From: Dipteris shenzhenensis
Taxonomy: Eukaryota
Assembly: GCA_047967505.1 (NCBI GenBank)
Contig: CM106538.1
DNA length: 64,000 bases
Direction: 5' to 3' (one strand)
Of the stretch, positions 27,529 to 61,300 are shown piece by piece. Below the pieces are notes generated by a model. It did not search any database. It was not told the DNA's origin and saw nothing but the letters and a program-made list of their open reading frames with translations. Made by a program: the position numbers and the translations under genes. Position 1 is the first letter of the stretch. Every line of letters begins with the position of its first letter.

Positions 27529-28495
27529 TGTGAACATAAGAAAGACTACCCATTCTAAACGCATCGGCCATTCCAATGTTGAAGCACACTTTGCGAAGGT
27601 TCACTTGTTGAGAATGGAAGGAGAGACAAAGATACTTAGAGATACCTTGCATAACCTCCAAGAACAACTAACCCAAGAACAAAAAAAACTCACTGACTCA
27701 AAAATTGCAAAAGAGAGGTCACAAGAGACAATCACAAGATTAATAGATGAGAAGAACAAACTATTGAAAAAGGCTTGGTGTATCCAACAAGAGCTTGCTA
27801 CGTTGACTAGGAGATTAGAAAGGATAAAAAGAACCCCTCTAGGTTACAAGCATAGGATCAAGCCCGTGCAACCAATGGAGAGCTTGGCATATGGTAGTGG
27901 AGCAAGGAAGCGCAGGGTGAAAGCTACAAGGTATGCATATTTGGACTATTTTGTAATTATGAAGCATTACTTACAAATGAGTCATTTATTTTTCTAATGT
28001 TATCATCATTTTTGCAGAAATTTTATGGAGGAGGTTATTGGAAGAAATTCCTCGGACAAACTTTGTGTTGTAAAGAGTGTAGTTAAGAAGAAAGAATTTG
28101 TTTCTATTCTTAAGGACCCTCGTCGACATGCATTGCGACATGCAATATTACAAGAGGTTGCAACTGATTTAGAGAATCTTGTAGATCCATCGGAAGTTGT
28201 CCATGCATGTGATGCTGCTAGCATTAGTCAGCAAGGGTACTTAGCTATCTATAATGTCTTTGTAAATGCACTTTGAGGTCAAGGCATTAAGAATCCTCTA
28301 TTGCCGAGACTAGTATACATTAGAAATGCAAGGAAAGAAACAAATTCTGTTGTTCAAGATTTGTTGGGTGGATTTATACACGTCTTAGAAAGCATGACGT
28401 TGGAAGGCACAAACAAGACAAATGTGCAACATAGCAAAAAGAAAGGAGGACCAACTACCAAAGGGGCAAAGCAAGGACAAAGAACCTTTGAGTAC

Positions 28496-29486
28496 TGTTA
28501 TGGATAAAATTGTCTAAGGAAAAAAGGCATTAATATGTGTGTGTGTTTGTATATGTGGCAATAGTATAATAAAATATGGTGTGCATAGGGCCCAGGGTTG
28601 AGGTGGCAGGGCATGACCATGTGCCACCCTTCCATGTAAGAGGACCCATAAGGTGTGTTGTACATAATCCATGATAGTAATATTATAAAATGCAAGGTGG
28701 CATGGCTCCTCCATGTGCCACCCCTCCACCTAGGCTGCATTTAGTGAGATATGGCTCAAAGTCCATGGGAGAAGCAATATAAAATAGGTGGAGATGGATA
28801 TTATATTGAGTTATACCCTCCATATGAGATAAGCCCATGTGGGGGAGGTATAGAAGGACCAAGAGAGCTAGTTAAATAATGGGGAAAGTAGGATGAGGTG
28901 GCAAGATTCCTTGTGCCAACCCTCCACTTGTCCTCCTAGAGGTTTGAACATATTATAAAATTGGAAAGAGACCAAGGGAGTATCATAGACTTGAGATATG
29001 GGGCTTGATTTATGTGGAAAATTGAGGCAAAGGGTTGTCGCACACAATTGAGAGTGCGTACCCACCTAGCCCACATGGGAGACTTTTCCACACACACCAT
29101 GCATGTGGGAGGATACATTAATGTGGAGAGACCCCCTCTTTTGGCTATAAAAGGAAGGGGCTATTCCTTGATGAGACACGCTCATTCTTGTAAAGCCACC
29201 TAGCTAGTATTTTGATATTTCCCTCTCATCCCTTCTTTCAAATAAAGTATGATTCTCTTCCCTTGATGTCTACATCTCAACATTCCTCCTCCTATCATGT
29301 ACATGCTTCTCTTCCCTCTCTCCCTTTCCCCTTGTGTCATAGTCTCCCTTTTCCTTCCCTCCACTTCTAATTCCTTTTTCACCCCTATGACATCCCTTCG
29401 CCCTCTCGATCTCCTTTTCTCTATGGCCTTTGAGCGTCGCCATACTTAGCCTCTAGCCTCTGGTCTCGATAACTTTTCTGGCTAAA
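28496..29486 (+). repeat. 5' LTR
   Basis: TGTTATGG...GGCTAAA; by eye it differs from the 3' LTR by about 4 substitutions and one 1-bp indel. Confidence 0.95.
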
Positions 29487-29492
29487 AGTTTT

Positions 29493-29510
29493 TGGTGTGG
29501 CTGCTGGGAT
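29493..29510 (+). promoter_or_regulatory. Primer-binding site complementary to tRNA-His
   Basis: TGGTGTGGCTGCTGGGAT is the reverse complement of ...ATCCCAGCAGCCACA-CCA, the plant tRNA-His(GUG) 3' end as I recall it. Confidence 0.8.
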
Positions 29511-29624
29511 CCGAATCTCCACGGCTGGTGGCGAATCTTCTATTTGTACGGGTTACATCAACAAAACTATACCATCTGTGCTCTTTCTAAGCTACTGCGC
29601 GGCGTGCATTCGATTCGTGCGCTC

Positions 29625-29810
29625 CAGTTCTCTGGACTGCTGCGACTTCTGGTTACAGACAGTTTTCTGCGCTCACCTGCGTGACAGTTCTCTGGACTGC
29701 TGCGACTTCTGGTTGCGGACAGTTTTCTGCGCTCACCTGCGCGATAGTTCTCTGGACTGCTGCGACTTCTGGTTGCGGACAGTTTTCTGCGCGACAGTTC
29801 TCTGGACTGC
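29625..29810 (+). repeat. 60-bp tandem repeat (~3 copies) in the retrotransposon leader
   Basis: AGTTCTCTGGACTGCTGCGACTTCTGGTT units start at ~29625, 29685 and 29745, with a partial fourth. Confidence 0.9.
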
Positions 29811-30222
29811 TCTGGTCGCCGGACTGTTTTCTGAGCCCCCTGCAAAAGAGTAACAGCAGATCCCGCGCCCCCCCCGATCTCTTCCTCTTCTTCTTCTTCT
29901 CTTTCTCTTTCTCTTCTCCTTCTCCTCTCCTCTCCTCTCTTTTTATTAAAGAGTAGGATTGGAACCCAAGACCTCCCCCTTCACAAAAGAAAGTCTTATC
30001 ATTGGGCCAACAAGTTGAAAGTGGTAAAAATGTACTGATTTTTGTTCATATATTGAAATCGCGGGAGCTGTAACTCTCTAACTGTAAGGAGTTTGCTCTT
30101 GCTGCAAAAAGCAAAAATATTTCATTTTATGTGCTCTATCCACATCTCTTGCTAGATCGCCAATTCAGAACTTCTCCAAGCTCACTTCACGGACACACGC
30201 CTCACGAGAAGGGTGGACATTT

Positions 30223-30633
30223 ATGTCACTTCTCGACGCGTTTAAGGAATTGGTGCCTGTTCTTTCGCACCTTACAGCTACCAATACACGAGATGTCTTC
30301 CTTGATCTTCATGTCGACCTTCAACGACTGATTGTCCAGTGCATTATTGATGGTGATGACGGGTGGAATGACACACCGTGGATGATTCATGGTGAAGAAG
30401 TACCGATACGCTGGGAGGATTTTGACTTTACTTCTGCTCATTGTGCGGTGATCGAACTACTTGCTGCTTCAGAGGTAATTAAAACGGTATCTTTCATCGA
30501 AGGGTGGGATGCTCCCCAAGCTTGGGGGGAGATTTGGCGCATCTGCTTGTTGATTCCTATGGAAAAGCTCGTCCTGAATGGTTTATTCACAATCTCATTA
30601 CAAAGGTTTCTAGGCCTTGGCTATGGTTGGTAA
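30223..30633 (+). CDS. Retrotransposon leader ORF1, 136 aa, unknown function
   Basis: ATG-started ORF whose TAA overlaps the next ATG (TAATG). Confidence 0.5.
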   Translation: MSLLDAFKELVPVLSHLTATNTRDVFLDLHVDLQRLIVQCIIDGDDGWNDTPWMIHGEEVPIRWEDFDFTSAHCAVIELLAASEVIKTVSFIEGWDAPQAWGEIWRICLLIPMEKLVLNGLFTISLQRFLGLGYGW

Positions 30634-30857
30634 TGTTTCGACCAAGGAATCCATTTGTACCTAATCAGCCTTTTGTGCCTCATTTCGAGCTTCAAATTGT
30701 AATTCTTTTTGGGCTTAAGATAAACTATCAACAAAGAATTGCAAGTTTATTTGGTGTTGAACGTTTAGCTCAAGTGTTGAATTCTCCCCACCCTCTCCTC
30801 CTACCTATCTTGGACTACCGAGAAACTTGGGATGTCCGCATTCTAGTCTTGGTGTGA
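30633..30857 (+). CDS. Retrotransposon leader ORF2, 74 aa, unknown function
   Basis: MFRPRNPF...RILVLV; bounded by TAATG and TGATG stop-start overlaps. Confidence 0.5.
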   Translation: MFRPRNPFVPNQPFVPHFELQIVILFGLKINYQQRIASLFGVERLAQVLNSPHPLLLPILDYRETWDVRILVLV

Positions 30858-31321
30858 TGACATCTTGGATTCTTCAATTTGATGGAGCTTACAAACCTTC
30901 GACCAAGGCGGCTGGCGTGGGTGTGAAGCTCACTTCACCGGGTGGTGAGGAGTATTGTTACAGCAAGTCTTCACCCGCAAGTACTTGCAATCAAGCTGAG
31001 TACTCGGTGCTCATTTTTGGGCTACAAAAGGCACAAGAACATCATGCCAAGCAATTGGAGGTGCAAGGAGATTCTCAACTAGTGTGTGAACAAGTTAGTG
31101 GAAGGTGGAAGGTGCGGAGCAAAGGCTTGGTTCCACGACATCAACAAGCCTTGGAACTTTGCAACCAATTTGAAGAGGTAAAAATTCAGCATATCCCTCG
31201 AGCTCGAAATCTTGTTGCTGATTTCTTGGCACGTGAAGCTTGTATTTCAATCACGCATGATGCGAGTGGAAGCGCCACCCCAACAAAGCCGCAAGCCACG
31301 AAGGAGGGTGATCGTTTGTAA
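30857..31321 (+). CDS. Additional (archaeal-type) RNase HI as a stand-alone ORF upstream of gag
   Basis: WILQFDGA, CNQAEY, VQGDSQLV and HIPRARNLVADFLA supply the four acidic RNase HI residues. Confidence 0.9.
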   Translation: MTSWILQFDGAYKPSTKAAGVGVKLTSPGGEEYCYSKSSPASTCNQAEYSVLIFGLQKAQEHHAKQLEVQGDSQLVCEQVSGRWKVRSKGLVPRHQQALELCNQFEEVKIQHIPRARNLVADFLAREACISITHDASGSATPTKPQATKEGDRL

Positions 31322-31457
31322 GGAATGCAAAGGTTGTGGTCATCATGAAACTAAGTGTTGGGCGTACTTAATACGAGTTCACCGACTTCGGAAGATCATC
31401 AGGAGGGTTCTCAAGGACATTGCTCAAAAGAAGGATGCCAGACCACACACCCCTTGA
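31257..31457 (+). CDS. Small basic CCHC zinc-knuckle ORF (66 aa)
   Basis: CKECKGCGHHETKC fits C-x2-C-x4-H-x4-C, flanked by Arg/Lys-rich segments. Confidence 0.6.
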   Translation: MMRVEAPPQQSRKPRRRVIVCKECKGCGHHETKCWAYLIRVHRLRKIIRRVLKDIAQKKDARPHTP

Positions 31458-31814
31458 AGAAATAGCATGGCGACTACAAGAACTGGAAGAAGCTGAAGGT
31501 GATGTGCAAGCTCTCCAACTGTTGACATTTGTCATGGCATTCTTGTTTGCCTTGATGAACAACCTCATGCAACGCCGCGCCTCTAACCCTCGCGTGTAAT
31601 GATCAATGTGATATCATGAGAGTTGGTCCTTTTAAGATTGTCTATGTGCTATTCTATGCTGAAGATTCTTCTCGTGTAATATTTCACACTACACCAGTCA
31701 CACCCTACCCTGCCTATGTGTGCTTTTTGGATGTATCTTCACCCGATTTTCAGTTCAAGCTTCCTCTTACTATTGTTCATCCATAGATAAGCCCCTCTTT
31801 TCCATCTTCCAAGC

Positions 31815-32765
31815 ATGGCTGACATTCCCGTGTTTTGTGGACGGGTAGAAGAAAATCCAAATGAGTATCTTGTGGCTTTCAAGCGCCGTTGTGTTTCTCT
31901 CAACTTTCTTACTGAAGACAGATGGCTATTGGTTCTTCCCACATTTCTAGAAGGTTTGGCTCAAGTGTGGTATGAGAAGCAAGCCGAAGATGTTCGCCAA
32001 AGCTGGCCAAGGTTGACAGCAGCAATGATTGAGTATTTCGGCAAAGAAGAGGAGACGGAGAATGTGTACCTGCAGGTGGCAAATTTGAAGCAGTCAGAAG
32101 GTGAGATGGCGCGTCGATATGTGGATCGAGCGGCCGTGCTCCTAGACCGTTTGATTGCCACACAGGAGGACAATGCCGGGTTTCGAGCTGGAATGACTCA
32201 GCATGTGCTGGGCTACCTTGTAGCAGGAGCGAGTGATGAATTCCGCCTCAAGCTTAAATGGGAGAATCCAGAAACTATGGTGCTAGCACATGAGATTGCT
32301 CAAAAGTTTGATAAAGTTCAGTCTGACCCCACTTCAAAGAAGATGATTGTCCCTCCGCATCCCCCTCAATTCCTGCAACAACAACCTGGGGGGTCTAACT
32401 CAGGGGCATACCCCCACCCCTCATCAGGGATGTATCCACCGCCTCCACCTCAAATGTATGGTCCTCCCTTAGATGCTTACCCTCAACAAGGTGGATATCC
32501 TCATCCTCTGCCTCAAAGATTTCCCCAGCCTCGCCCATGAGCTCCCCTCCTCTCTACTCCCGTGGCCCCTCCAACTAAAGAGGCCCCCCCTGCAACAGAA
32601 CCTGGAGTCAATGACTTAGCCAAGGTCCTGAATGATCTTTGGCTTGAGATGGTGGGCATCAGAAATCAAGCCAACCGCCCTCCAAGAGATCGTGCTAATG
32701 TTGTATGCTACGAGTACCACCAGAAGGGTCATTATCGCACAGAATGCCCAATATTCCGAGGGTGA
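31815..32765 (+). CDS. gag, with an in-frame TGA at 32538-32540
   Basis: Retrotransposon gag-like PVFCG..ENPNEYL and FLEGLAQVWY, a Pro-rich linker, and a degenerate knuckle CYEYHQKGHYRTEC in the same frame after the stop. Confidence 0.85.
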
Positions 32766-35700
32766 ATCTTCTAAGTGAGTCGGGCACTGAGGATTCTGAT
32801 GTGGAGATCCTTGATCTCAAGAAAAGAACTCGTGCTACCTCGGACCCCTCTCCAAACCGTGGACCGAGCTACCCCAGGAAGAAGGTGTCCTTCTCAAAGC
32901 CCTCAGATGCTGAGATGGCAGACCCACCAACAGAGAAGACTAAAAGATCTCGCAGGAGTAAGTGGTCACCCTCGGATTTTCCCATCGGCTCAGGGCAAGA
33001 GGACTATTCGGTCGTTCAAGACCTTGCTCATCGGTCTTTGAGCATCACACTCCCTCAACTAATAGCATTAACCCCTAAGGTTAGACGTGAGCTGCAGCAA
33101 GGTCTCTCAACAAGGAAGAGCAACAAAAAGGGAAAGGTACGAGAGGTATCTTCTATCTCTGAAGAAATTGATCGGCACCCACACACAATAGATGTCATCA
33201 TAGATAATTGCCGTGTCAAAAATGTGTGTGTTAATGGGGGAGCTGCATGTAATATCATGGTGCCCCGAATCATGAAGAAATTGAATTTGAAATGTACAAG
33301 GCGTTCCTCCACTCGAATCAAGGTAGCAGATGGTCGACGACTCGCCACCATGGGAGTCATTGAGGATTTGCCCATCACTGTCAATGGGTTGACCACCACT
33401 GTCAATTTCTATGTAGTGGACATTGAAGATACAGGCAGAAGTTACCCAGCCATACTCGGGAGACCATGGTTGAGAAAAAGTGATGCAGTCAGCTATTGGA
33501 AGACAGGACACATGTCTTTTGGTGCTTCCAAGGAGAAGATCCCGGTGCAACCTGGTGCCATGGAACCGGAAGAAGAAGAGGAGCATGACAGTGATACTAT
33601 CTCATCTTCTGTGTCTGAGTCCATGGAAGAATCAGACGGGAGGGACGAATTCTCAAAGGAGGAAGTTTACATGATGGGGGTGTCTCCGACCCTGCCACCT
33701 GTAGAAAAGATAACAGCTAGTCCTCAACAGCTCGAATCAATGCTTTCTCCAGACCTCACTCCAAGTGAGAAAGATGAGTTTCTTGAAATGTTCAAAGATT
33801 TCCCTGACCTCTTTGCAACTAGCTACCACCACCTTCGCCATGTGACTGCCATAGAGCACAAGATAGAGCTAAAGCCTGATGCAAAGCCTGTGGCTCAGAA
33901 GTATCAGAGATTAGGGCCCCTGCAGACCGACGCTTTGCGCTCAGAGTTGCAGAAGCTTGTAGAGGCTGGGTTTATTGTTCCGGTTCACAATACTGAATGG
34001 GTTTCACCAGTGGTAGTCATCCCAAAGGAAAACAACAAGTGGCGGGTCTGCATCGACTATAAGAAGCTCAATGCTGCCACCAAGAGGGATCATCATCCTC
34101 TACCCTTTCAAGACCTCATTCTTGAGAAGGTAAGTGGTCATGAGATGTATACTTTCTGTGATTGTTACTCTGGGTTTTATCAAATCAGAATTGCCGAGGA
34201 AGATGTGCTTAAAACCACATTTGCCACACCCTGGGGGACATTGGCATTCAAAGTAATGCCATTTGGCCTCACCAATGCTCCTGCCACCTTTCAAAGATTT
34301 ATGCAGATGGTGTTTGCTCCTTATTTGGGGGATTTCTTGGAGGTGTTTTTAGATGATTTCTGTATATTCTCATCACGTAAGGAGCACATCATGAAGGTTA
34401 GATTGACCTTCCAAAGGGTCAATGATGCAAATGGCAGTCTCAACCCTGAGAAATGCACCATTGGAGCCACTCAAGGGAGGTTATTGGGACATGTTGTCTC
34501 ATCCGAGGGCATCAAGCCTAACCCCGAGAAGGTAGAAGCCATCCTCAAACTCTCCCCACCTACAACCAAACGTCAGGTACGCTCATTTGTCAATCTAGCA
34601 GGATACTATCGCCGCTTCATTGATCAGTATGCTGCTTTGACATGGCCCATGACTATGCTATTGAAAGATGGGGTTGATTTTTCTTGGGATGAGGATTGTG
34701 ATCATGGTTTTGCACAAATCAAGAATGCTTTGGCTTCAGAACCCATTCTACGTAATCCAGACTGGTCAAAGACCTTCTATATCAATCCTGGGTTTGGTGA
34801 GCACACTCTGGCAAGTATTCTTCTCCAGCAAGGGGAGGATCGGTTCATGTATCCCGTTCGATTTGCTTCTCGACAATTGCTCGACACTGAGCGACGCTAT
34901 TCAGAGGCCGACAAGCATGCCTTGTCTTTGGTGTTTTGCATTGAGAAATTTAAGCATTATGTGGCTAGAAAGTCCTTCTTTATACTCACTAGCACTGGTC
35001 TTGCAAAGCAGGTTCTTCAATCACCAAATCCCATGGGCCGGTTGGCCAAATGGTTGGCAGTTCTACAAGAATATGATTTTTCTTTCAAAATTGTAAGAGG
35101 GGGTTGTTCCAACTTGAAGAATGCTTTGATTGATTTAGAGGAGTGCCTTGATGTAACCTTTGTAGCAGCCATAGAAGTTGGGGATCCTTGGTATGGTGGT
35201 ATCTACAAGTTTTTGACCGCTTTCTCCTTTCCTTCAGAAAGTACTAGCTATGAGAGAAAGAAGATCCGCAGAGATAGTAGGCGCTACACCCTCCTTGATG
35301 GGGTGTTGTACCGTCAAGGCATGGATGGGGTACTCAGATGGGCCATTGATGCAGATGAAGTGCCTAAGGTATTGAAGCATTATCATGATGGATTTTGTGG
35401 AGGCCACTATGCCAGTGACTATACAGCTAAGAAGATTTTACATGCTGGATACTATTGGCCGACCTTGTTCAAGGATGTCACTTTGTATTGCAAAACCTGT
35501 GAACCATGTCAATTCTTCGGTAGGAAGGATTTGCGTCCCGGGCAACATCACCCAGTGATGTCCATCCATCCGTTTCAGAAATGGGGAATAGATTTTGTCG
35601 GGCCCTTGCCCATGACTGCCCGCAAAAAGAAGTATCTTTTGGTAGCGACTCAGTATGTCACTAAGTGGGCTGAAGCTATCACCCTCTCTGCTGCAAATGG

Positions 35701-36505
35701 CAAGGCAGTTTCAAATTTCATATTTGAACGTATTTGCACAAGGTTTGGGACACCCATGGAGATAGTCTCTGAGCATGGGAGTCCATTCTTAAATGAAGCA
35801 GTGGAGTTACTCATGGATCGTATGGGCATTGATCATCACACTTCTAGCATCTATTATCCAGCATCCATGGGTCAAACAGAGCAGACCAATGGCCTCCTTT
35901 GTAAAACCATGGGAAAGATGGCCGCAGGGAACAGGAGCCAATGGGATCAGAAGGTCACTGAAGCCATGTGGGCTTACAACATCACTCATAAAACATCTAC
36001 AGGTCACACCCCTTTTGAGTTGGTGTATGGTACTGAGGCAGTTTTACCACTAGAGATAGAGATTCCGGCCTTGAGATTGGCACAGGAACAGAGGATGACA
36101 GAAGATGAACATGTAGAGGCCAGATTGGTACAACTTGAGAAGTTAGATGAAACCCGACGCCTTGCACTACACCAAACAGAGATCCAAAAGAATCGACAAA
36201 AGGCTCGATTGGATGCTAAGATTCGCAAGGGATGGGAAAGACACTTTGCTGAGGGGGATGTTGTGCTATGCTTTGATAACAGATTGGACCACCAAATGGA
36301 TAAGAAGTTTCTGCCACTGTGGGCTGGTCCATACAAAGTCATCAAAGAACGTAGCAATGGGTCTGTACAAGTTCAGGAGCTGCATGAACCATATGGCAAG
36401 AAGGTGATCAACAAGCGTTACCTCAAGCCTTTCTTTGTGCGTGATGGTCCCAGGCATGGAAATGCTATGCATTCCCTGCCTGGGGGGGGGAACTGTTATG
36501 GATAA
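32705..36505 (+). CDS. pol polyprotein (protease, RT, RNase H, integrase), 1266 aa
   Basis: VNGGA (protease site, D>N), ILGRPWL, WRVCIDYKKLN, MPFGLTNAPATFQR, VFLDDF, HHCC zinc finger, KWGIDFVGP and GPY; gypsy domain order. The ORF ends inside the 3' LTR. Confidence 0.97.
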   Translation: MLRVPPEGSLSHRMPNIPRVNLLSESGTEDSDVEILDLKKRTRATSDPSPNRGPSYPRKKVSFSKPSDAEMADPPTEKTKRSRRSKWSPSDFPIGSGQEDYSVVQDLAHRSLSITLPQLIALTPKVRRELQQGLSTRKSNKKGKVREVSSISEEIDRHPHTIDVIIDNCRVKNVCVNGGAACNIMVPRIMKKLNLKCTRRSSTRIKVADGRRLATMGVIEDLPITVNGLTTTVNFYVVDIEDTGRSYPAILGRPWLRKSDAVSYWKTGHMSFGASKEKIPVQPGAMEPEEEEEHDSDTISSSVSESMEESDGRDEFSKEEVYMMGVSPTLPPVEKITASPQQLESMLSPDLTPSEKDEFLEMFKDFPDLFATSYHHLRHVTAIEHKIELKPDAKPVAQKYQRLGPLQTDALRSELQKLVEAGFIVPVHNTEWVSPVVVIPKENNKWRVCIDYKKLNAATKRDHHPLPFQDLILEKVSGHEMYTFCDCYSGFYQIRIAEEDVLKTTFATPWGTLAFKVMPFGLTNAPATFQRFMQMVFAPYLGDFLEVFLDDFCIFSSRKEHIMKVRLTFQRVNDANGSLNPEKCTIGATQGRLLGHVVSSEGIKPNPEKVEAILKLSPPTTKRQVRSFVNLAGYYRRFIDQYAALTWPMTMLLKDGVDFSWDEDCDHGFAQIKNALASEPILRNPDWSKTFYINPGFGEHTLASILLQQGEDRFMYPVRFASRQLLDTERRYSEADKHALSLVFCIEKFKHYVARKSFFILTSTGLAKQVLQSPNPMGRLAKWLAVLQEYDFSFKIVRGGCSNLKNALIDLEECLDVTFVAAIEVGDPWYGGIYKFLTAFSFPSESTSYERKKIRRDSRRYTLLDGVLYRQGMDGVLRWAIDADEVPKVLKHYHDGFCGGHYASDYTAKKILHAGYYWPTLFKDVTLYCKTCEPCQFFGRKDLRPGQHHPVMSIHPFQKWGIDFVGPLPMTARKKKYLLVATQYVTKWAEAITLSAANGKAVSNFIFERICTRFGTPMEIVSEHGSPFLNEAVELLMDRMGIDHHTSSIYYPASMGQTEQTNGLLCKTMGKMAAGNRSQWDQKVTEAMWAYNITHKTSTGHTPFELVYGTEAVLPLEIEIPALRLAQEQRMTEDEHVEARLVQLEKLDETRRLALHQTEIQKNRQKARLDAKIRKGWERHFAEGDVVLCFDNRLDHQMDKKFLPLWAGPYKVIKERSNGSVQVQELHEPYGKKVINKRYLKPFFVRDGPRHGNAMHSLPGGGNCYG

Positions 36506-37483
36506 AATTGTCTAAGGAAAAAAGGCATTAATATGTGTGTGTGTTTGTATATGTGGCAATAGTATAATAAAATATGGTGTGCATAGGGCCCAGGGTTGAG
36601 GTGGCAGGGCATGACCATGTGCCACCCTTCCATGTAAGAGGACCCATAAGGTGTGTTGTACATAATCCATGATAGTAATATTATAAAATGCAAGGTGGCA
36701 TGGCTCCTCCATGTGCCACCCCTCCACCTAGGCTGCATTTAGTGAGATATGGCTCAAAGTCCATGGGAGAAGCAATATAAAATAGGTGGAGATGGATATT
36801 ATATTGAGTTATACCCTCCATATGAGATAGGCCCACGTGGGGGAGGTATAGAAGGACCAAGAGAGCTAGTTAAATAATGGGGAAAGTAGGATGAGGTGGC
36901 AAGATTCCTTGTGCCAACCCTCCACTTGTCCTCCTAGAGGTTTGAACATATTATAAAATTGGAAAGAGACCAAGGGATATCATAGACTTGAGATATGGGG
37001 CTTGATTTATGTGGAAAATTGAGGCAAAGGGTTGTCGCACACAATTGAGAGTGCGTACCCACCTAGCCCACATGGGAGACTTTTCCACACACACCATGCA
37101 TGTGGGAGGATACATTAATGTGGAGAGACCCCCTCTTTTGGCTATAAAAGGAAGGGGCTATTCCTTGATGAGACACGCTCATTCTTGTAAAGCCACCTAG
37201 CTAGTATTTTGATATTTCCCTCTCATCCCTTCTTTCAAATAAAGTATGGTTCTCTTCCCTTGATGTCTACATCTCAACATTCCTCCTCCTATCATGTACA
37301 TGCTTCTCTTCCCTCTCTCCCTTTCCCCTTGTGTCATAGTCTCCCTTTTCCTTCCCTCCACTTCTAATTCCTTTTTCACCCCTATGACATCCCTTCGCCC
37401 TCTCGATCTCCTTTTCTCTATGGCCTTTGAGCATCGCCATACTTAGCCTCTAGCCTCTGGTCTCGATAACTTTTCTGGCTAAA
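36494..37483 (+). repeat. 3' LTR, preceded by a G-rich PPT (36482-36492)
   Basis: Direct repeat of 28496-29486. Confidence 0.95.
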
Positions 37484-43014: not shown

Positions 43015-43046
43015 CATTAGGGAAAAAGGGAACTCATTTTGGGGCC
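43015..43046 (+). repeat. Left TIR of element B
   Basis: CATTAGGGAAAAAGGGAACTCATTTTGGGGCC. Confidence 0.9.
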
Positions 43047-50580: not shown

Positions 50581-50643
50581 TTAGAACATGTTCTTCATGT
50601 CTTTGATCTCTTTCCAATCCTTTGTATGCAGTTTTTCAGAGTG

Positions 50644-52744
50644 ATGGCAAGAACCAAATCAACTGCAAGGCAAGTTGGCAAAGGACCAAGTCTTGCAGCA
50701 ACAGCAGCTGGGACAGGTTCCAAGAAGTTTAGTGTGCCTCCAAAGGGAAGAGCTTCACATGGCAGGAAGGGTAAGCCAATGAGCTTGCTCAAGCAAAAGG
50801 CCAAAAGATTGAATAAGGGTGCAGGTGTGCTTAGGGAAATAAGGAGGCAACAGAAAGCCATAGGTTTTGCAATACCCAAAGCACCCTTTCAAAGACTGGT
50901 GAGAGAAATTTGTGACAGTTGGAACCTTGGGTTCAGGTGGAATAGAACTGCCATTCTTTCCTTGCAGGAAATGGCAGAGGATTACCTGGAGAAATATTTT
51001 GAGGATGCAATGCTTGTAGCAGCCCATGCTCACAGGGTGACTTTGATGGCCAAAGATTTCAACACTTTGTCCAGAGTGAGATGGAGATATGACAAGCTGG
51101 TTCATCCTGTGGAATGGCAGGACATCAAAATGAGAGATATATTGCTAATTCCACCTACAAGGAAGGTCAAGGTTGATGAGGTAAAGGTTGTTGAGGTAAC
51201 ACACTCAAAGAACACCAGAGGGAAGGCTGCTTATGAGGACTCACTGAAGCAGCAAGTAAAAGAAACAAAATCTGTGATAGATGTGGAAACTGGAAAGAAG
51301 GAGCTACACATACATAGAAGGTTGAAGGAGCTGGGCCCTGATGTAGTTGTACATATTGAGGATGAAGTTTCAGTCAATGATTTTGATTTGACAAAACAAT
51401 GCTTAGCAGCATTGGCTAACAAGAATGAGTATTGCTCAGATACTATCATTCTTGCAATGCTCTAGTAAGTGTCTTTAAATTTTACATTTTTTGCAAATCA
51501 ATCCTCCTTGTAACTCTTTTATAACCTACCCTAATTATGTTCTGATCCTATGCAGCATGATGAGAAGCTGGCTTCATCCCTCTGTACAACATACAGTCCA
51601 TATTGTTGATCCAGCCATTTCTTCTAGATTAAGAGATGCAAAAGAGACTCCCATGAGTATTTCCAGCTGGTTCAAACACTGCAATTTTGAAGTAATTGAC
51701 ATTTTGCTACTTCCATATCATAGCAAGTATGTGGGTGACTACTTCTTTTAAGATTCTTCTTTAATATTGGGAACTCTTGTAGCCTTTCATTTGCTTATGC
51801 TTTTTTCCTTATGCAGTGACCACTGGAGTTTTGTGTCTATTGACATCCAGCAGAAGCAGTGCTTTCTATTCAACTCTCTAAAAAACACACACAGAGAGCT
51901 GAAATTGTAAGTACTGTGTGTGCTTTCTGAACTCAAAACTTCATTATTTTGATACCATACTAACTAAATTATACATATTGCAGTTGTATTAGAAGGCTAT
52001 TAGATGCATTGGATCATTGTCCTCCAAATGTCTCTCTGTTGGATTCAATAGAGCCATTAAGTCTAGAGGTAAAAAGTCTATTAAATGCTATGTCTTTGAA
52101 CTTATTGAATAATTTTGTTTTGTGCTGATGCTCACAGTTTCTAACATTTTTTTATAACTGTACAGACACCACAACAAAATGATTCAAGTAGTTGTGGATG
52201 GAGGGTGCTGATCAATGCAAAATATATACTTTCAAGCTACTTTGAAAAGGAACAGCCAGATCTGGTAAGGAAAAATACTTTTCATTTAGCTTGAATATAA
52301 TTCATAATGATACAAAGTGTTCTAAATTATCCTCTGCCATTGCAGATGAAAGAGGATAGCTTCAGCCCCAACTATGTACATAATTTTAGAGCTCATACAA
52401 TTTTGAGGTTTTTGAGCTATGCCTCCCCCAAACCTATTGTAGCAGCTACTGTGGAGCTGGGTGAAAGCTCTAAAGTACAAGAAGGTGTCATACACCTTGA
52501 TCCCACATATGAAGCACCTGATGTTGAGGACCAGAAGCCACAGGAGCAATCACAGAGTGCTGAGGAGGAGCAGACACAGGAGCAAAGACCTGCTGCTGAT
52601 GTTGAGGAGAAGGTGGAGAAGCAGCAAAGAGAGGCTTCTGGGGCAGTGGAGGAGACAGGATGGAGCACGGACAGGATGGAGCAGCAGAGAGAAGATCCTC
52701 CAGAAAATGTAGAGCAGCCTCTGGATGAAACTGTACATAAATAG
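50644..52744 (+). CDS. Histone H3-like / Ulp1-SENP (peptidase C48)-like fusion protein; exons 50644-51464, 51556-51726, 51817-51906, 51984-52068, 52166-52264, 52346-52744; ~554 aa
   Basis: MARTKSTAR tail and H3 fold (LREIRRQQK, PFQRLVREI, HAHRVTL), then LLLPYHSNDHWSFVSID...FNSL and TPQQNDSSSCG. All introns are GT-AG and the frame is open. Confidence 0.88.
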
Positions 52745-52828
52745 AAAATGGATGTTAGAAATATGTTCTACAGATTCAGCTAAACAATTCTGTACAAAAT
52801 CTTACTTGATTGAATACAAAACCTTTCT

Positions 52829-54268
52829 TTATGGAGTATGTGTGATCTCAATTTTAAAATTTTCTATGTCTTTGCATTTAACTGAGCTCTCTCTTCTTCT
52901 GAGTAACTGCAAAAAAGCAATATGAATTAGAGTGGTAAATTAAACTAATAGCAATGCTTATAGAGACTAGGATAAATCAGATGGTGTACCTTTCTGTTCT
53001 TGTAGATAAATAAAAAGTCGTTTGAGATAGAACCTTCAGTCTCAAACAGAATGTCACTGCGTAATTGAGCTAGGGAGCAACATTCTCTTAACGAGATACT
53101 GGCTACCACATCACCATTCTCAAGAACATCAATATCAATAAGTTTATTTTGTGCACCAAACAACTCTTCATCTTGGTCCATTGGGACAAGCTTTGAACCT
53201 AGCATTCGACTGCGCTTGTAATAAAAAGAGAGAATAAAATTTTGTGATGCAACCATGTACTTCAGTTGCATAGAAGGTTGGACCACCTCACAAAACACTG
53301 AACTACATGTCTTCTTATCCCAACCTTTATCCAAAAATTGTGGCATGCATGCCGAATTTGTTGCTTTAACTGTGAGCATTGTTTTTGAAACCTTTACTGG
53401 AAAGGTATTAAACAAGTCTACAAAAACTGTGAGAGGCATGCACAAAGAAATTTTTACTATCCTAGTGGCAATATTGGGCCTCAGAGCTTTCTGTACTTCT
53501 GTAAAAAGCTTCGCCCTATATGCCTCTGTAACACTAGAATGTGGGTGAGGCCAATCCACCGAATTCCACGCCGGAAGGTCTTGTTTTATTAATACACCAT
53601 GTGTGTTAGCTTTGTCCAGCAACTGATAAAAATGATCAGTAAAAAATATACCCGATTGAGCTAGCTTTGTTGCACATCGACCTTGGTATTGTTGTTCTCC
53701 TATCGATCCATGCAGAACATCTATAAATCCCAGAATACAATCGATGTTTTGCCATGTCTCATACGATGAAGGATATAAATCTGAAATAAAACAACACAAG
53801 AATGTCAATAAGTTAAGAGAGAAAGCTTCATCTTAAAAATCCATACACCTCATGAAGGAAAAAACCACAATAGAAAAATATACAATTAGGCCTGTGTTGC
53901 GGAAGATTTTTTGGATAGTCTCGCAAGACAAGTTCTTTATGCATGTACACGTGCTGAATCAAAACTTCTTTCACGGATATCTTCCCTTTGGTGATTTTAA
54001 AATCTCGTACTCTTCCCTTCCACGATGCCAAGAAAATGTTTTTTGTCTGGGGTCTTTTTCTTTTGCTAGGTTGCATGAGCACCCATGCTCCTTTCGAAAC
54101 ACTAAACCTTTCCCAAGTTCCTTCTGTTTTGACTGTACTTGAATTCTCTACCGACGAAATAGAAGAAGCAGGTCGACGGGGTAAGGATGTTTGGTATAAT
54201 TCTGCCTTCGTAGCATTATCATCCACAGAGCGTCTTGCACAAGAACGGCCGTGGTTTTGGTTCACCAT
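52829..54268 (-). CDS. BAH-like plus C-terminal ubiquitin-like protein; exons 54268-53884, 53780-52990, 52906-52829; ~417 aa
   Basis: The spliced frame is open. KGAWVLMQP..WKGRVRDF..IQHVYMHKEL..PNYLYPS..IDCILGFIDV resembles the BAH pattern, and the C-terminus SLAQLRSDI..FLFIYKNRKL resembles a beta-grasp fold. Domain calls are tentative. Confidence 0.7.
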
Positions 54269-54727
54269 GGAGATTTTCTGAATCTGTAAGAATAGCAAAG
54301 TAATGTAACTAAGATAACAATTTGAAGTTTCAAGAAAGAGAAAGTGGGCAAACAGACAGTTGACGAGAAACATCTTACTCTACGCCAAACAGGATCAAGG
54401 GAGCAGTTTTGGAAAAGGAAGGCAGTTGCACAATGAGGCAATGGTGTAGAATGGTAGACCTTTCGCACGAAAGGCGGCACAATATTTAAAAATTCAAAGG
54501 AAGGTGGAAGCGGGAAGGATCTTGTCAGATAAAATGTCAGTTTAGATTCTATCTTCTTGTCCAAAGATCTTCTACGAATAAAAAACCAATCTCCTCATTA
54601 ATGTAGCACGCTTGTACTTACATAAAGTATTGTTTCTTTTTTCTATTTTCTCTTATTTTCGTGAATTTTCAACGTTACGTTGGCCTTCTATTGATTGGTT
54701 GAGAGCTTATTTTTCCAAACCGTAAAA

Positions 54728-54759
54728 GGCCCCAAAATGAGCTCCCTTTTTTCCTAATG
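54728..54759 (-). repeat. Right TIR of element B
   Basis: GGCCCCAAAATGAGCTCCCTTTTTTCCTAATG, the reverse complement of the left TIR with 2 mismatches. Confidence 0.9.
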
Positions 54760-56374
54760 CTAGGCTATGGTGCTCGAACATTCCCATATAGTGTCCTAGT
54801 GCTAAATCCACACCGATGATGTCACCTCGACCCCCTTTACGTGTCGCAAACTGATCAACTTCGATGACGTCTTGAAAATTGAGATAACATCAATAATCTT
54901 CTCAATGCCAAACTAAGAACATAAATTCATTCATATTGACAAAATATCATGAGCTTACAATGTGGGCAGCATCTTGTTCATCCATTCCCGACCGAGTTAT
55001 ATCGATGGAGCTTTTGCTCTCATCAATTGCTGGAGGTGGTGCCGATGATGAGGCCTCTGCAGTATTCTCAAGTCTTTGGCGTTTCTCGTTTCTGTGCCCT
55101 CTCTGGCTCCAATCTTTCTTGGACCTCACAGAACTCCGTCTCTGTAACTGGTGCATTAGTAGAGTCATGCATTTCCTCCCACACAGTTAAGATCGGATGC
55201 TCCAAAGTGTTTGCAGGTGCCAAATTTGTGCACCTATCCAACCCCTCTTCTAGGTAACCTAAGTTACTACTACTCTCCCAAGTGGAGAGTGCCCCGAGTA
55301 CTTCATCTTCTCTCAAATTTTTAATATATTGAATGTCAATCAATAATAAATATTCTCTGTTTTCAATCAAAATATACGGAAGGGTTTGCATCAAAACCTC
55401 ATCCGTCATACCTTCTTCCTCCTATTTTTGCTCTCCTTCCTCCTCTTCCTCTTCTAGCTGTCGTGTGGGGGATGATGTCCCACCTCCTTCGGGAACCACA
55501 ACCAACTTTGTCGTCTGCTCTATTTCTGCTATGTGCTTTCCCTTGTCCAAAGTTGCACTAGACCAATCTAGAGCAATGGCGGCTTCCGCAACCACATCAG
55601 GATTCTCCTCAACGTCCACATCTTGCCCTGCTGCTAGAAGAAGAGGTGGCTTTACATTGATGAATGGAGGTGCATCTGTGTCCTCCATTTCCAAAAGAAT
55701 TACACAATAGGCTATTTCCAAGGATACAAAACGAGTTCCTATAGGACCCGCTTGCAGATCCAACTCTTCATCCTTGGAAATCCTTCTAAAACTTTTTGGA
55801 CTAAGGGATTTGCAAATTCTTTGCAATCTAAACTTGAAAGTGCTATCAACCCGGCAACAGTTAATGAAGAGATTCACAGGAACCCACTGTACTCTATCTA
55901 TGTCTAGCCGGATTAGGTAAGGCTTGATTTTCTCTCTCACGTAATCTACCACATCTCTAAAGAGATCTAGATGCTTGTGGACTGTGCCGATGACATCTAT
56001 TTGACGATGAAAAATGTCATACAACTCTGCCTCTCTACTTGAATGACGAGTAGAAGTGACGAAGTCATGGTATGCCTCGTGGGGTGTGGCCATTGGAGGT
56101 TTGTGGAAGATGGCAATAGCAGGCTGTCTAGGAGATGAGGACAATAAAGGCTATGTCAATCCTAACGGCCCTTTATATAGTTGACTTCAGTCTCTTTAAA
56201 TACCTTAAAGGTCCAACTACAATTTAGATAATAAAATATTGGACAATGTAATATATTGGCCTAAATAATTTGCCATCATATTCCACTCCTACCTCCCCCC
56301 GCCACCCAAAATAATGGTTTTTTTTTTGGAATTTAGGAGGCCCTATGTTAGTACAAATGACATCACACTTAACA

Positions 56375-56592
56375 AAAACTATTACATTTAGTCAAAAACT
56401 ATTACATTTAGTCAAAAACTATTACAACACAATTTCAAAAGTTTTACATTTATTCAAGTGCTATTACAACACACTTCAAAAACTATATCATATTTTCAAA
56501 ACTATTACAACACACATCAAAAACTACTAATTTTATTAAGTATACTCATTGCCAGTACAAATGACATCACACTTCAAAAACTATTACATTTA
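56375..56592 (+). repeat. Short dispersed-tandem motif AAAACTATTACA
   Basis: The motif recurs about 8 times at ~20-30-bp spacing between two genes of element A. Confidence 0.7.
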
Positions 56593-57521
56593 TTCAATAC
56601 CCGTATGAATGGACAAGTTATAAGGAGGCTTCCATTTCTCAAGCATTAATGTTCCTTCGAGTTGCCTTCTCACTATCTTCCCATTTAGTGTAAAGAAAAA
56701 ATCACTATCATCAAAGGTGATAGCGATATATTCTCGAACATGCTTCAAGCTCCAACTACCTATGACCTCAAGATATTGGATATCCCCATTGGGCATATGT
56801 ACCTCTACCTCTGTGGTGTCCACTACATCACAATCCATAGGTATCCATGTGCCATGATTATTTTTCCAACGTCTGTAAGTGTATCTCATGTAGTAAATAC
56901 TTCGCACTACTTGATATCTTATTACTATACTTTCTTGAGTAAGTATACATCGAAAATGGTCTCCCTTCTGCAAACCTTCCCTAACATCCCACATTGGGTA
57001 TAGAAGATTATCAAGAAATTCATTTTCTAGGCCTTTGCATACCCACATGGTCTTTGTCTTGTGAATGAAGACTGATTTGAAAAAATAAATAAATGTAATG
57101 GAGGGCATGAACCAACTAACACCCACATATTTTGAACCGAAAGTAAACTTCATTGATGATTGAATATTTGATCTCATGTTCATTCTAAATGCATCTATAG
57201 AGAATGGATCAGGAAGAGGCCATTCTAGACTATCAAAGTTAGGGAGAGGAATAGGACATAGGCTTCCATATGCACCTTCTCTTCGAGGAACTTGGTAACA
57301 TAAATTATAGAAAAAAATACTAGACTTTGTCAAGGAGGCAGCACTCCGTCCTGAGAACATTAATTCCCCAATATTTGAATGGAAAGCTTGAAATATTCCC
57401 GTGAGACTATCCAGAGGCTAGGTTTCAACTTTGGTGCAGGGAAAGATATCTACATAGAAAGCAAAGAAAGATGTTAATGGGCCAATCAATCTCTCTCACT
57501 CTCTACCTATCTCTCTCTCTC

Positions 57522-57556
<35 letters not shown>

Positions 57557-58370
57557 ACTCACAAATCTCTCCCCTCTACTATCTCCCCCTAACACCCCTC
57601 ACCCACCCCATCTCTCTCTCTCTCCCTCCCCCCCTCCCCCTCTAGTATCACCACAAGACACCCTCTCTCAAAACGCATGCTCACATACAATCATTAGAAT
57701 ACACAATTGAACTGAAAATGAAAAAAAGTTAATGTAAAAGAGAGATACAATTTGAAGGAAAGCAAGTTTGACTGGCAGGATCCAAGTTCATGTCTCGAGC
57801 CATGTACACATGCTGAACCTTCACCCAACAATGCGACCCTCTCAATGCTTCTCTTTTTCTTTGCTCTATCCTTTCTAGAAAGCTTGAATGGACCTATTGC
57901 AGATGGTTGCATTGTGACCCATGACATTAACCTAAACTCTTGAGGGATCCAAATATCACTGTTGTCCTTCAAAATGCGACCCACACAAGATTGAATCGAT
58001 AGCTTTGGCCTAGGGAAAGGGGAGTGCTTCACGGTGGAAAGCCACTAGCGCCCCTTCCTAGGTTGAAATTCCAATGTTAAAGCTCTAGAAGTTTTGTTGA
58101 CATTGATGTCTTCAATCTACCCACTGTCAGAATTTAAAAGCATCATGAGAGCTGATCTTTTAAGGAAGAACTCATCGGCTGACCTTGGCAACTTCAACAA
58201 TGTGTGTCAAACTTTGCATGTCAGTACTTCTTATCCTATACCCATGTCCTTGAACGTGATTGGTCTGTTGCACTGCACCATTATGACACTCTTAGCAAAG
58301 CCTTTGAAGCTTCGTGGAAGCATGCTGAGTGGGAGCATAGCCATGGTGTTAGCATACACCTTCTAGCAAG
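56590..58370 (-). pseudogene. BAH-Ubl paralogue of element A
   Basis: WVTMQPS, VQHVYM, NYIFP (same intron position as in B), SSIFF, LPNFDSLEWP and SWSLKHVREYI..FFFTLNGK align with the B gene. Contains stops and a frameshift. Confidence 0.75.
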
Positions 58371-61300
58371 CAGATTAAGACATGGTTAAGGTCGCACGAA
58401 TAGGGCATGGGTCGGCCAGACATGGCTAGGAAGTGGGAAGGGGGGGGGGGGGGGGGGCACATTCTCTTAGAGCAAGGTCCCATGGACCGGCTATCTCCAC
58501 CCTGAGTGACGTAGACCAGAAGGAGTAGTCCCTATGGTCATCCTGGAGTTGCTACTGCAGAGGAGTTAGAGAGCTTGCCAAAGAGGTCGTAGCGTGTGGC
58601 AGAGGTAGCTGAAATAGGCTACAAATTCCAAAAATGGAAGCAAGAGCAGTTAGGAATCGGCCCAGAACTTCCGAAACTCCAAGAGTGGGAGTTTCCAGAT
58701 GCCAGGGGGTGCCCTAGGGCACCTTCTAAATTCACTCAGTTCATCCGACTACCGGAGATTGGCACTTACGTCAATTGATGCGGTTGGTGGAGATACCCGA
58801 TCCATGGGGCCTTGCTCTTAATGGAGTTCACCCTTCACCATGTCAAGCATGGCTAAATTTCCTTGGTCCTCTTGTAGTGGATTCTCCTTCTTCTTCTTGC
58901 TTTTCTTCTTCTCACCATGTGAGTGCAGTGTCATCCATCAATCTTTCACTGTGGATGTCACAAATGTCCCTCGAGTTGAAAAATAAAGGGTATTGACTTG
59001 TTTGATGCCACCACAAAAGCAAACGGCCTGCCTAACCCATGCAAACGGGCTGCGTAGTCAGAGTATAGTAGGATCTCCGATTTGCTGCCACGCGTTATTC
59101 TTCTTGCAAAATGAAGTGAATTCTTCTGTACTTACAGGGAATTCCCACGCTTCTTGTTTCGTTGCCCTATTTCTACGAATTGGCAAAGAATAGTAACCCT
59201 CCCGAAGAATCGCCTTCTTGATCGGTTAGCATCGGAGAAGAGGGCAACGTCAAGTGTGAAGATAGCAGGAAGACTTTTTCAAGGAGAATCGAGCCAATGT
59301 GCTCCTTTGAATTAGCTTGCAATCAGCCTAAAACATAGGAAACCAGCTCACGCTCGCACGTTCCCACGATCGTCTCTCTTAACGCTCACCCTCTTTCTCC
59401 GTCGTGGCGTGAGAATGTCCTCGTAACCGGAGGGAATCGTGTGCACGTAACTCTGATAACGACTCAAACATGTGCTAGGCAGAGGGATAATCTCCCCACA
59501 CACGTGTGCCCCATCTATCTCGGTTCTCCTCAAGGCCGTAATCGAGAGATCCGGACTCGTGCGGTCTCTTCACCGGAAATACTCGACCCCATGCAACCCG
59601 CCAACATCCGGGAGATGTCCAGCCATCCTGGGCCCCCGGAAACTACCACTCCGAGAGTTCCTGACTATTCTTGGCTATGCATTCATGAATTCCCACCGGT
59701 TCTTCTCTGCCATCACCAGTCAGATTGCGCCACAGACATCCTCACGCCCTGCAGCGGATTGAGCTGGCTCTTTCATGGGGCCTCAACCAAAAACAAAGGA
59801 GCTCAAAAATGAAATTTCCGTCCTCGGTTATTTCCACTCAGGATCCCCTGCTTCTCCGTTGCATGGGTATTCCCTAGGATCCTCCGTGGTCACAGCACTG
59901 GTCTCCGGTATCATTCCAGGCCCACACTCTCTCTTTTCTTACGTGTACTTGATTCTGCTTGTGCACGAGTTGCATTCTATTGCACTTCAGATCTTTCTGA
60001 GACCATCTCCATCTCTCCTAGAGTAGACTTTGTTGAACAACGTATCCCCGACTCGTGGTTTAAAAAATACGAAATAGTACAAAAACTAAAAATCCTCAAG
60101 ATGTCAAAAATTCAAACAGATAAATTCGCAAGGTTGATATTCAAGATTTTAGTAACACAGAAAGTGAGACTCCTTTAAACTGAAAACCAACCCCGTCAAT
60201 CACTGCACAGAAATCTTCTAGCGATGGAAGTTCGACACGAGGTAGCGATGGTAAGTCCCATACTTGCTTTTAGTTTCAGATAAAAATGTCAAGTTTAGGC
60301 TAAGAAACTGTCCCTTGGATCAAACCAACAGATCCCATTTCCATGGAGAACAGCTAATTGAAACAACAGGACACTTATGTACAATAGGGTACGATGAGTA
60401 CACTAGGTTGAGGCAAAGCCACGCATCCAAGGCCAAATTGAAGATATGCGCAATCTCTCTATAGAACAATTTTCAGAATGTCCTACAGTTGTGGGCAAAT
60501 CTACTATACGTATAGGATCGCATCCAATCTAGCAAAACCTAGTTTGGCATCCATCCAACACCATTTACAACCTAAAACTAGCAGAAACTCTCTGATGAAA
60601 GCCAGTGTTAACGTGGCCAATATGATGCATGCGGCACAACTAGCTAGACAACAGCCAAGGTTTTTCCCCATAGCCCATCACATTTTCGCAAATTGACGTA
60701 AAAACAAAGCAAAGATAGGCCATATCACCAATAAGGTAGAAAGATGCAAAAGTCATTGCCTGCCCATTCTTGAAAGGCACTTTGCCAGGCCAAAATATGG
60801 CAGAGCACCGTCAACCTCAGAAGACAGTAAACAACAAAACACTGATACTTACCTAGGTTGCTTCAGAAAGATGATTATTGGATTGCCGTGGGCACATTAC
60901 AGACCAGCCTTTCCCTCACATCAACATAACATAGTATACCTTTGTAAGACTAGAATATATCCAATCATACAAATAAGGAGTTTTCGTCGTTCTTAAAAAG
61001 GTTTTAGACTCTTTGTGGAAGCGTAGAAAATGGTTAGAACATGGCTCAATTTGAATAGGTTTGCCTTTGATAGTCGTGAAGATTTGGTGTGAATGTCCTA
61101 ATTTGGATACACTGTTAGGTGTCCATGTAGGAAATGATGTTTTCTCGAGACTTGTGCTTCACGTTAACTCTCCTGCTGACTCCCACAAACTTTGCACTTA
61201 AACAAAAGAAAACAGAAAATGCCAGTTCTGGCCGTTGTGTAGGAAATATTAGATCAAGAGTATTTTGCTCTTGCAGATGTACACTGCAGTATCTTTAGAT

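Follow-up and report, generated by a model that had tools for sequence, protein, structure and literature searches.

Are the transposon genes that lie on either side of an intact element the remains of one older relative of that element, or fragments that merely happen to be neighbours? The question is raised by a stretch of 64,000 nucleotides from contig CM106538.1 of Dipteris shenzhenensis (assembly GCA_047967505.1), referred to below as the window, in which an intact element, B, interrupts a damaged set of genes, A. Both have the same four gene classes: a transposase (T), a histone H3-like gene (H3) and two genes termed here X and Y, the latter with putative BAH and ubiquitin-like parts. 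With arrowheads for the direction of reading, A is arranged as T> H3> <X <Y and B as T> <X H3-Ulp1> <Y; Y is the last gene, read inward, in both. We find that A is most probably a dead, 5'-truncated copy of a deeply diverged lineage within the same four-gene, ~10-12 kb, cut-and-paste family as B.

The region was mapped from stop-to-stop open reading frames (ORFs), an all-against-all comparison of the window's ORFs and Pfam scans. The gene classes, strands and order proposed for A and B in a first-pass annotation, made from the letters of the sequence, were confirmed by ORFs, Pfam and tblastn.

Contiguity of element A and the insertion of element B

A survives in three pieces (~27.53-28.49, 37.49-43.01 and 54.76-58.04 kb), the last two separated by B. 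We treat A as one element because removal of B rejoins its last X exon in frame. A profile hidden Markov model (HMM) of the X C-terminal domain, built from six sequences, matches two short minus-strand ORFs adjoining B, besides B's own exon. The ORF at the right flank, 54710-54889(-), covers profile positions 12-55 (E 0.03) and that at the left flank, 42815-43033(-), covers positions 56-109 (E 3e-4), so that the two sets of positions meet exactly at the B insertion. Junctions were scanned with the last left base at 43004-43015 and the first right base at 54758-54771, and the 112 variants with an ORF of at least 90 amino acids (aa) over the junction were scored. The junction 43014/54760, which removes exactly B, gives one open frame matching positions 12-109 with 41.6 bits (E 7.6e-13); the two exon pieces scored apart reach 11.2 and 17.8 bits. 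This was the top score of all variants, tied with the shifted junction 43015/54761, and removal of three more bases loses ~6.5 bits. We conclude that the T/H3 half and the X/Y half of A were contiguous before B came; they are not the unrelated neighbours whose possibility the first-pass annotation had raised against its own reading.

B is intact and transcribed. Three observations support its ends: the inverted termini, of the form 5'-CA...TG-3' (CATTAGG...CCTAATG), agree at 30 of 32 positions; a further copy of the terminus is present at 5765 in the window (below); and contigs of other sequencing runs part from the window at 43010 and at 54759/54760. The three transposase introns (43965-44092, 44762-44848 and 45703-45781), all GT..AG, coincide with joints in contigs from two runs of RNA type (the type as guessed by the tool), and the spliced product of 813 aa has no stop and aligns end to end with an 898-aa database relative, P0009. 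It is because of these spliced joints and this open product that we call B intact and expressed. Sequence like B occurs in runs with the labels algae, plant and air metagenome, a range that fits a green organism spread by spores. A joint 44164>57072 in one metagenome run was disregarded, one of its sides being only 21 letters long. Contigs from several runs also lie over A (39.2-40.5 and 56.4-57.8 kb); their type is uncertain, they may come from other copies, and they were not used as evidence of A expression.

A is a decayed, dead and older copy: it is truncated at the 5' side, has stops in frame, has lost splice signals, and has been invaded by a long terminal repeat (LTR) retrotransposon. 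Its 5' edge adjoins a reverse transcriptase (RT)/RNase H fragment of another retroelement (Pfam RT_RNaseH_2 match to ~27535), and roughly the first hundred transposase codons are gone. The transposase has in-frame stops in the front piece (NAL-stop-GQG) and further on (HQP-stop-GSN at 38053, and E-stop-FYRG), those of the remainder lying at 38053 and ~39030; the acceptor ahead of its last exon is CAA in A and CAG in B. The Y gene has one in-frame stop (VET-stop-PLD), and its donor after ...CQSN has decayed to TTG. In the H3 gene, the N-terminal extension contains a tandem duplication (39930-40546) of 317 bp, a length not divisible by three.

The first-pass annotation had placed A at 27529-58400. 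The left limit, at ~27.53 kb, stands as the point of 5' truncation; no terminal repeat marks 58400; and the interior had to be divided, since 28496-37481 is an unrelated gypsy-type LTR retrotransposon (Pfam gag, RVT_1, RNase H and integrase). That retrotransposon is young, with 4 differences between its LTRs over 986 aligned positions; a target duplication, AGTAC, stands on either side (28491-28495 and 37482-37486). Removal of the insertion in silico restores ...FEYTEHNNVFLD, co-linear with B. The retrotransposon also has an extra RNase H-like ORF in an unusual position upstream of gag (Pfam RVT_3, 30761-31321) and a 60-bp tandem repeat in three copies (29618-29797) just inside its 5' LTR.

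Homology of the four genes and gene order in the family

For comparison of A with B, both B and the LTR element were masked in the window, which was then searched by tblastn with the B ORFs as queries. The transposases match at 32% identity over 389 aa (E 2.7e-59), with other co-linear matches of 44% over 117 aa (4e-22) and 37% over 124 aa (1e-26), and 23% over 95 aa (5e-8) upstream of the LTR element. H3 matches at 42% over 84 aa (5e-17) and Y at 26% over 277 aa (2.3e-27). Direct comparison of X gave only 46% over 26 aa (E 0.03), and therefore profiles were used: among 2031 window ORFs, the A ORF 55071-55421(-) is matched at E 1.4e-10 by an HMM built from seven X proteins of the B type (that of B itself and those of six metagenome loci described below). 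The X of locus L022 matches that of A at 30% over 109 aa (E 1e-17), tying in the A N-terminal X domain, and also carries the middle domain common with B (42% over 52 aa, E 1e-7). All four gene classes are thus homologous between A and B, with X the most diverged and its N-terminal domain lineage-specific. The strong divergence claimed in the first-pass annotation is thus borne out, by tblastn for T, H3 and Y and by profiles for X.

Its claim of shared intron positions also holds (a slash marks the position). The R/ intron has the donor AAG/GT in the same phase in both elements (at 27931 in A), the HYM/ intron has the donor ATG/GT in both, and the N/Y intron has the same phase and a conserved acceptor, with the A donor decayed. 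Many database relatives end ...ITHYMV, that is, they read through into the HYM/ intron. Other introns are not common to the two: KAWG/DCEG is found in A and absent in B, and SFQ/VKTED is found in B and absent in A. An A-specific intron lies at ~37558-37633 in the transposase. To judge from ORF read-throughs and from tblastn matches that are split, loci of the A clade (below) also appear to have the KAWG/DCEG intron.

Metagenome contigs were scanned with an alignment of 10 rows, which yielded 34 loci of 1.3-6.1 kb; the genes next to the transposase were sought by tblastn with A and B proteins and by ORF inspection. The transposase is followed by a convergent X (T> <X) at nine loci (L001, L002, L003, L004, L006, L008, L009, L015 and L017) and by H3 in the same direction (T> H3>) at five (L012, L013, L023 and L030 by tblastn, L018 by the ORF start MARTKQTARK). 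Two loci have T> X> (L022, and L025 by a shared N-terminal peptide), one has T> <Y (L019), and the remaining 17 show a transposase without a visible neighbour.

A maximum-likelihood tree was built from 32 transposase cores (A, B, 23 loci and 7 database proteins; the 11 loci with a best match of <250 aa were excluded). B falls in a 12-row clade with support 100/99, in which each locus with a visible neighbour is T> <X. A falls in a separate 10-row clade (97/96) with P0011-P0013, L017, L018, L020, L022, L023 and L025. Its core is only 42-44% identical to those of its nearest relatives in the sample. The midpoint root has both kinds of adjacency on each side (L012 and L013 on the B side, L017 on the A side); more than one change of order must therefore have taken place, in no assignable direction. 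Judged by these sequences, A would represent a second, deeply diverged lineage of B's family. The first-pass view of an old, diversified family whose same components have been shuffled is supported by the deep transposase clades and the 34 loci.

One could object that the gene order of A is a private rearrangement, an inversion or deletion that a decayed copy suffered after insertion. A is heavily damaged and nested, the right half of its order (<X <Y) has no independent copy among the 34 loci, and members of the A clade differ in the neighbour of T (T> X> in L022 and L025, T> <X in L017). We consider this improbable, because T> H3> recurs at five of the 34 loci, including some of A's own clade; because the H3 nearest to A's is that of L023 (63% over 63 aa, followed by L013 at 49%, L012 at 47% and B at 42%); and because Y is last and inward in A and B alike.

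Transposase clade and accessory genes

The family consists of mobile, multi-copy elements with inverted CA...TG termini, in which a RAG1/CACTA-type DDE transposase travels with H3, X and Y. The transposase has escaped existing models: even with the threshold relaxed to E 1, Pfam finds no transposase family in either element or in five full-length relatives. Its relatives, all unnamed, number 13 in a word-indexed search of longer proteins, and an exhaustive search of representative proteins returned 641 matches, most of which look like exon-sized fragments; none was found in prokaryote genome contigs or viral contigs.

An AlphaFold2 model of the full-length relative P0009, made with 64 aligned relatives, has a predicted local distance difference test score (pLDDT) of 76, and >90 through the core. 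Foldseek against solved structures places RAG1 chains first (4wwx_E, E 1.2e-11), with the ProtoRAG protein BbRAGL (6b40_A, 4.8e-8) and HzTransib (6pqx_A, 1e-6) also matching; TM-scores normalised to the target are 0.44-0.61 across RAG1/ProtoRAG/Transib, and the next different fold is that of P element transposase, at E 0.04. The motif pattern comprises D (KLDE), D (AGDLK), CxxC ~20 residues on, an invariant H.C..H, HxxxxH, and E (GME) ~20 residues further; catalytic residues were assigned by this pattern rather than by residue-level superposition. In the 813-aa product of B the motifs are KLDE 356, AGDLK 453, CLYC 475, HIIYNH 692 and GME 715, and A has KLDE, AGDLK, CLYC, QHILYAH and GME too. 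C68, C71, H108 and H113 are invariant in 10 aligned sequences.

In the CACTA/Mirage/Chapaev/Transib (CMCT) clade, as outlined in Kojima 2025 (PMC12730594), the termini are mostly CA...TG, and insertion makes target duplications of 2-5 bp. The present family has the DDE triad on an RNase H-like core (from the motifs and the P0009 model) and the C(2)C and H(4)H motifs, and B has the CA...TG termini. From the model and motifs we would place the transposase in the CMCT clade, and not specifically with Transib. To our knowledge, no CMCT lineage other than Transib/RAG1 has a solved structure, so the fold match does not separate Transib from CACTA-like lineages.

Pfam Histone (PF00125, cut-off 26.4 bits) matches H3 of A at 122.3 bits (E 1.8e-35) and of B at 91.9 bits (E 4.6e-26). 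Against solved structures, A H3 is best matched by H3.1/H3.2/H3.3 (E 2.3e-33), with canonical H3.1 aligned over 107 residues, and its fold, at 40556-40867, is an open frame. The tails read MARIKQTGRP in A (at 39780), MARTKSTARQ in B (at 50644), and MARTKQTA(R/K)K (L018, L023) or MGRVKQCAKR in metagenome loci. Compared with the canonical H3 tail, K4 is retained; at position 9, A has P and B has Q.

The A gene stops directly after the H3 fold, as do those of L012 and L013, and neither Pfam nor tblastn found an Ulp1 part in A. In B the frame continues from the H3 fold into the start of an Ulp1-type domain that is carried on over further exons, one of which matches Ulp1/peptidase C48 at 20.0 bits (E 7e-4; cut-off 20.7). 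In the Ulp1 part of B (51300-52300, plus strand) we recognise by eye, across exons, the canonical HW, Q and C motifs, and at the catalytic Asp position there appears to be N (...FNSL...); by its sequence, this protease may be altered or inactive. A separate observation is that in the intronless lineage of L012 and L013 a further plus-strand ORF follows H3 (L012:3059-3238, L013:2587-2856), beginning MVR(R/V)K(I/K)TP.R.N.Y..LLG; it may encode a further small basic protein belonging to the element.

X has three conserved regions and an acidic linker, with CxxHxxxC in the first region of B-type copies. The A gene has the A/L022-type N-terminal domain, the acidic linker, an LPxxLIxxxxYLLLxDI...LRED domain and the C-terminal domain. 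No match to X was found in Pfam, solved-structure sequences (singly or as a profile) or the ESM Atlas. Y likewise gave no match in solved-structure sequences (singly or as a profile) or the ESM Atlas, and none among longer proteins; six database relatives of Y were found and aligned. In a model of the Y main exon, residues 213-265 (the last 55) form strand-strand-helix-strand with pLDDT 75-84, and the region carries on into further small exons. The best ubiquitin-like matches (HHR23a UBL, Hub1, UBLCP1, TBK1 ULD) have Z 3.4-3.8, below the meaningful level, so that the model is weakly compatible with a C-terminus that may be ubiquitin-like. Pfam found nothing in either Y exon of A or B, the putative domain spanning the N/Y intron, and the putative BAH part within exon 2 has pLDDT <50.

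It might be argued that H3, X and Y are passenger host-gene fragments, acquired by transduplication and of no use to the element; H3 capture by a hAT transposon is documented, as outlined in PMC6710886, and the A H3 fold is close to canonical H3. Such an origin seems highly improbable to us, since the three classes are found beside transposases that share no more than 31-57% identity with the B core, in two deep clades and on many contigs. X ORFs of 386-627 aa are open in seven loci, intron positions are common to A and B, and the H3 genes have tails of their own and, in B, a fused protease. The persistence of the four genes, reshuffled, over ~30-45% identical transposases argues that H3, X and Y serve the element as functional components and are not passengers.

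Several results weigh against our interpretation of A and of the family. First, all four genes occur together at no other locus, there being no contig longer than 6.1 kb. Second, the A N-terminal X domain was not detected by the B-type X HMM (E 5.7) and is tied to the family through the single locus L022. Third, blastn of A's two end regions against each other found no terminal repeats, a scan of the window with the B termini gave nothing B-like near the A ends, and the B ends have no match in 58-61 kb; we thus infer the true extent of A and its mobility as a unit. Fourth, B has no visible target duplication (flanks ...GCACA/CTAGG...), the exon test is best with no bases removed beyond B, and the 2-5 bp duplication expected of CMCT elements is therefore missing at this site. 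Fifth, a 64-member profile of the transposase family found no RAG1 or Transib among all solved-structure sequences at E up to 10, so that the link to RAG1/Transib is by fold and motifs only. Sixth, the model of the Y main exon is poor (pLDDT 53), save over its last 55 residues.

As to the missing duplication, this is a single insertion, and decay or an atypical event may account for it. A candidate duplication, TATGG (43003-43007 and 54766-54770), was dropped, as it would put non-matching bases in the termini and disagrees with the exon test. That the T/H3 segment left of B and the X/Y segment right of it are unrelated adjacent fragments would fit the lack of terminal repeats around A, of a B target duplication and of a second <X <Y copy, but is scarcely credible when the flanks of B are adjoining in-frame halves of one X exon, the best score falls on exact removal of B, and the two halves jointly hold each of the four genes exactly once. 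We therefore hold with good confidence to the structural account, in which A is one element of B's family. That B landed inside a relative hints, in this single case, at a preference for related elements.

Proposed mechanism, known systems and other features of the region

On our account, both lineages would encode a RAG1-fold DDE transposase, an H3 variant, a three-domain X and Y, and the H3 variant would keep an ARTK-like tail, alone in A and fused to an Ulp1-type protease in B. After or during the decay of A, the gypsy-type LTR retrotransposon would have landed in the transposase exon, and an intact B-family element in the last X exon. The transposase would excise and integrate the element at its CA...TG termini. 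X lies beside repeat arrays and, in many lineages, is read towards the transposase; it may act as an accessory transposition factor. CACTA elements have a second protein that is a DNA-binding partner, and X may be a partner of this kind.

The H3 variant, the Ulp1 part and Y would work on the element's chromatin, probably to protect it from silencing, in parallel to VANDAL/KI-MULE elements as these are outlined in PMC13317346. This chromatin role is suggested by analogy, and we offer it tentatively. More doubtful is a broader picture: an old, widespread RAG1-fold family with a chromatin toolkit made up of an H3 variant (K4 kept, K9 lost in some lineages, a SUMO-type protease fused in one), a possible chromatin-reader/ubiquitin-like protein and a RAG1-RAG2-like convergent X. 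This toolkit might place or mimic parts of nucleosomes to escape silencing or to guide integration, and the lack of a duplication at B might set the family apart from known CMCT elements.

Among known systems, RAG1, ProtoRAG and Transib have the catalytic core fold that the present family matches, but show no sequence match to it, and X shows no sign of being RAG2-like, with no match in Pfam, solved structures or the ESM Atlas. The B termini are not heptamer-like and lack a 5-bp duplication, heptamer-like termini and such a duplication being features of Transib. The transposase with a convergent second gene in B and nine loci recalls the RAG1L-RAG2L pair outlined in PMC7204232. The CMCT clade, as set out in PMC12730594, includes EnSpm/CACTA, Mirage, Chapaev, Transib, Plavaka and ESTA, of which ESTA is likewise tied to RAG1 by structure-based comparison, namely only by HHpred. 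The present family differs from these in having no Pfam transposase match, no duplication at B, and three accessory genes including a histone.

The Lanisha superfamily (reference sequence GenBank MT647524), proposed from the moss Ceratodon purpureus (outlined in PMC8245031), is described as resembling EnSpm and as having C(2)C and H(3-4)H motifs in common with RAG1 and Transib (PMC8245031, PMC12730594). Lanisha is the most evident candidate name for the A/B family, and membership is possible.

KI-MULE/VANDAL elements are DNA transposons with an Ulp1-type protease and putative anti-silencing genes such as VANC (as outlined in PMC13317346), but have a transposase of another superfamily, whereas here the Ulp1 part is fused to an H3 fold, and in B only. 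An H3-like coding sequence within a DNA transposon is also known from hAT elements of Dothideomycete fungi. There, according to PMC6710886, the H3 sequences are transduplicated passengers, which repeat-induced point mutation has mostly inactivated, in contrast to the H3 genes described here, which are kept over deep lineages with a tail of their own and sometimes a fused protease. In the literature searched we found no transposon-borne H3 beyond the fungal hAT, and a plant gene-capture review (PMC13317346) is silent on histone H3. Nor did we find an H3-Ulp1 fusion reported, or a DNA-transposon family described as retaining an H3 gene of its own from lineage to lineage; the Lanisha description may hold such a report.

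Transposable element-borne Ulp1 domains and captured H3 genes are thus known separately, from what PMC13317346 and PMC6710886 outline. An H3 variant carried by a transposon, and joined in one lineage to an Ulp1-type protease, would, if true, be a new way for an element to act on its own chromatin. A RAG1-fold transposase lineage without a Pfam model, apparently of green organisms, would bear on the diversification of CACTA, Transib and RAG1. The nesting allows the order of events to be dated and an insertion site, free of target duplication, to be placed precisely. Should the Lanisha report already cover these genes, the value of the locus would be that of a well-documented second lineage and an example of nesting.

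Table 1. Elements A and B and the features within and between them, in window coordinates.
Feature	Position	Strand	Basis or remarks
A transposase, 5'-truncated front piece	27529-28495	+	coiled-coil, R/ intron, N-terminal domain; translation and comparison with B
Gypsy-type LTR retrotransposon inside A transposase exon	28496-37481	+	Pfam; not part of A
A transposase, remainder	37487-39196	+	core KLDE, AGDLK, CLYC, HYM/; last exon GMEKSH
A histone H3-like gene	39780-40870	+	Pfam Histone, solved-structure match
Direct/inverted low-complexity repeat cluster, A H3-X intergenic	41140-41900		repeat comparison
A X gene, 3' half of last exon, left flank of B	42815-43014	-	X C-terminal HMM
Element B, 11,745 bp, in A X gene	43015-54759	+	termini CATTAGGRAAAAAGGGARCTCATTTTGGGGCC...CCTAATG
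B transposase	43416-46151	+	ORFs
B X	46478-48167	-	ORFs
B H3-Ulp1	from 50644	+	ORFs
B Y	~52525-54280	-	ORFs
A X gene, 5' and middle parts and first half of C-terminal domain	54760-56150	-	tblastn, HMM
Four copies of 40-bp repeat between A Y and X	56421-56600		repeat comparison
A Y gene	56593-58044	-	exon 1 ~57766-58044; exon 2 56593 to ~57450; microsatellite-rich intron between

The interval between the divergent X and H3-Ulp1 genes of B (48439-50548) is taken up by tandem repeats, which may serve as promoters or as arrays of binding sites: a 205-bp unit in three copies (48439-49053) and units of ~300 bp (49655-50548). In the repeat cluster between A H3 and X, a GC-rich core (GCCCCTGAGGGGCC-like) is combined with A-rich/T-rich runs. 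A third copy of the B terminus, nearest to the B right end over ~150 bp, is found at 5765-5926 (plus strand), between two local repeats of ~165 bp (5535-5769 and 5927-6099) and without an element body; it may be a solo end or the remnant of a miniature derivative.

More generally, the introns in the window are short and of the GT..AG kind, and it also contains LTR retroelements and microsatellites. At its left is a fragment of copia-type RT/integrase (668-2692, minus strand), and at its right a trehalose-phosphatase-like exon (61999-62259, minus strand) probably belongs to a host gene.

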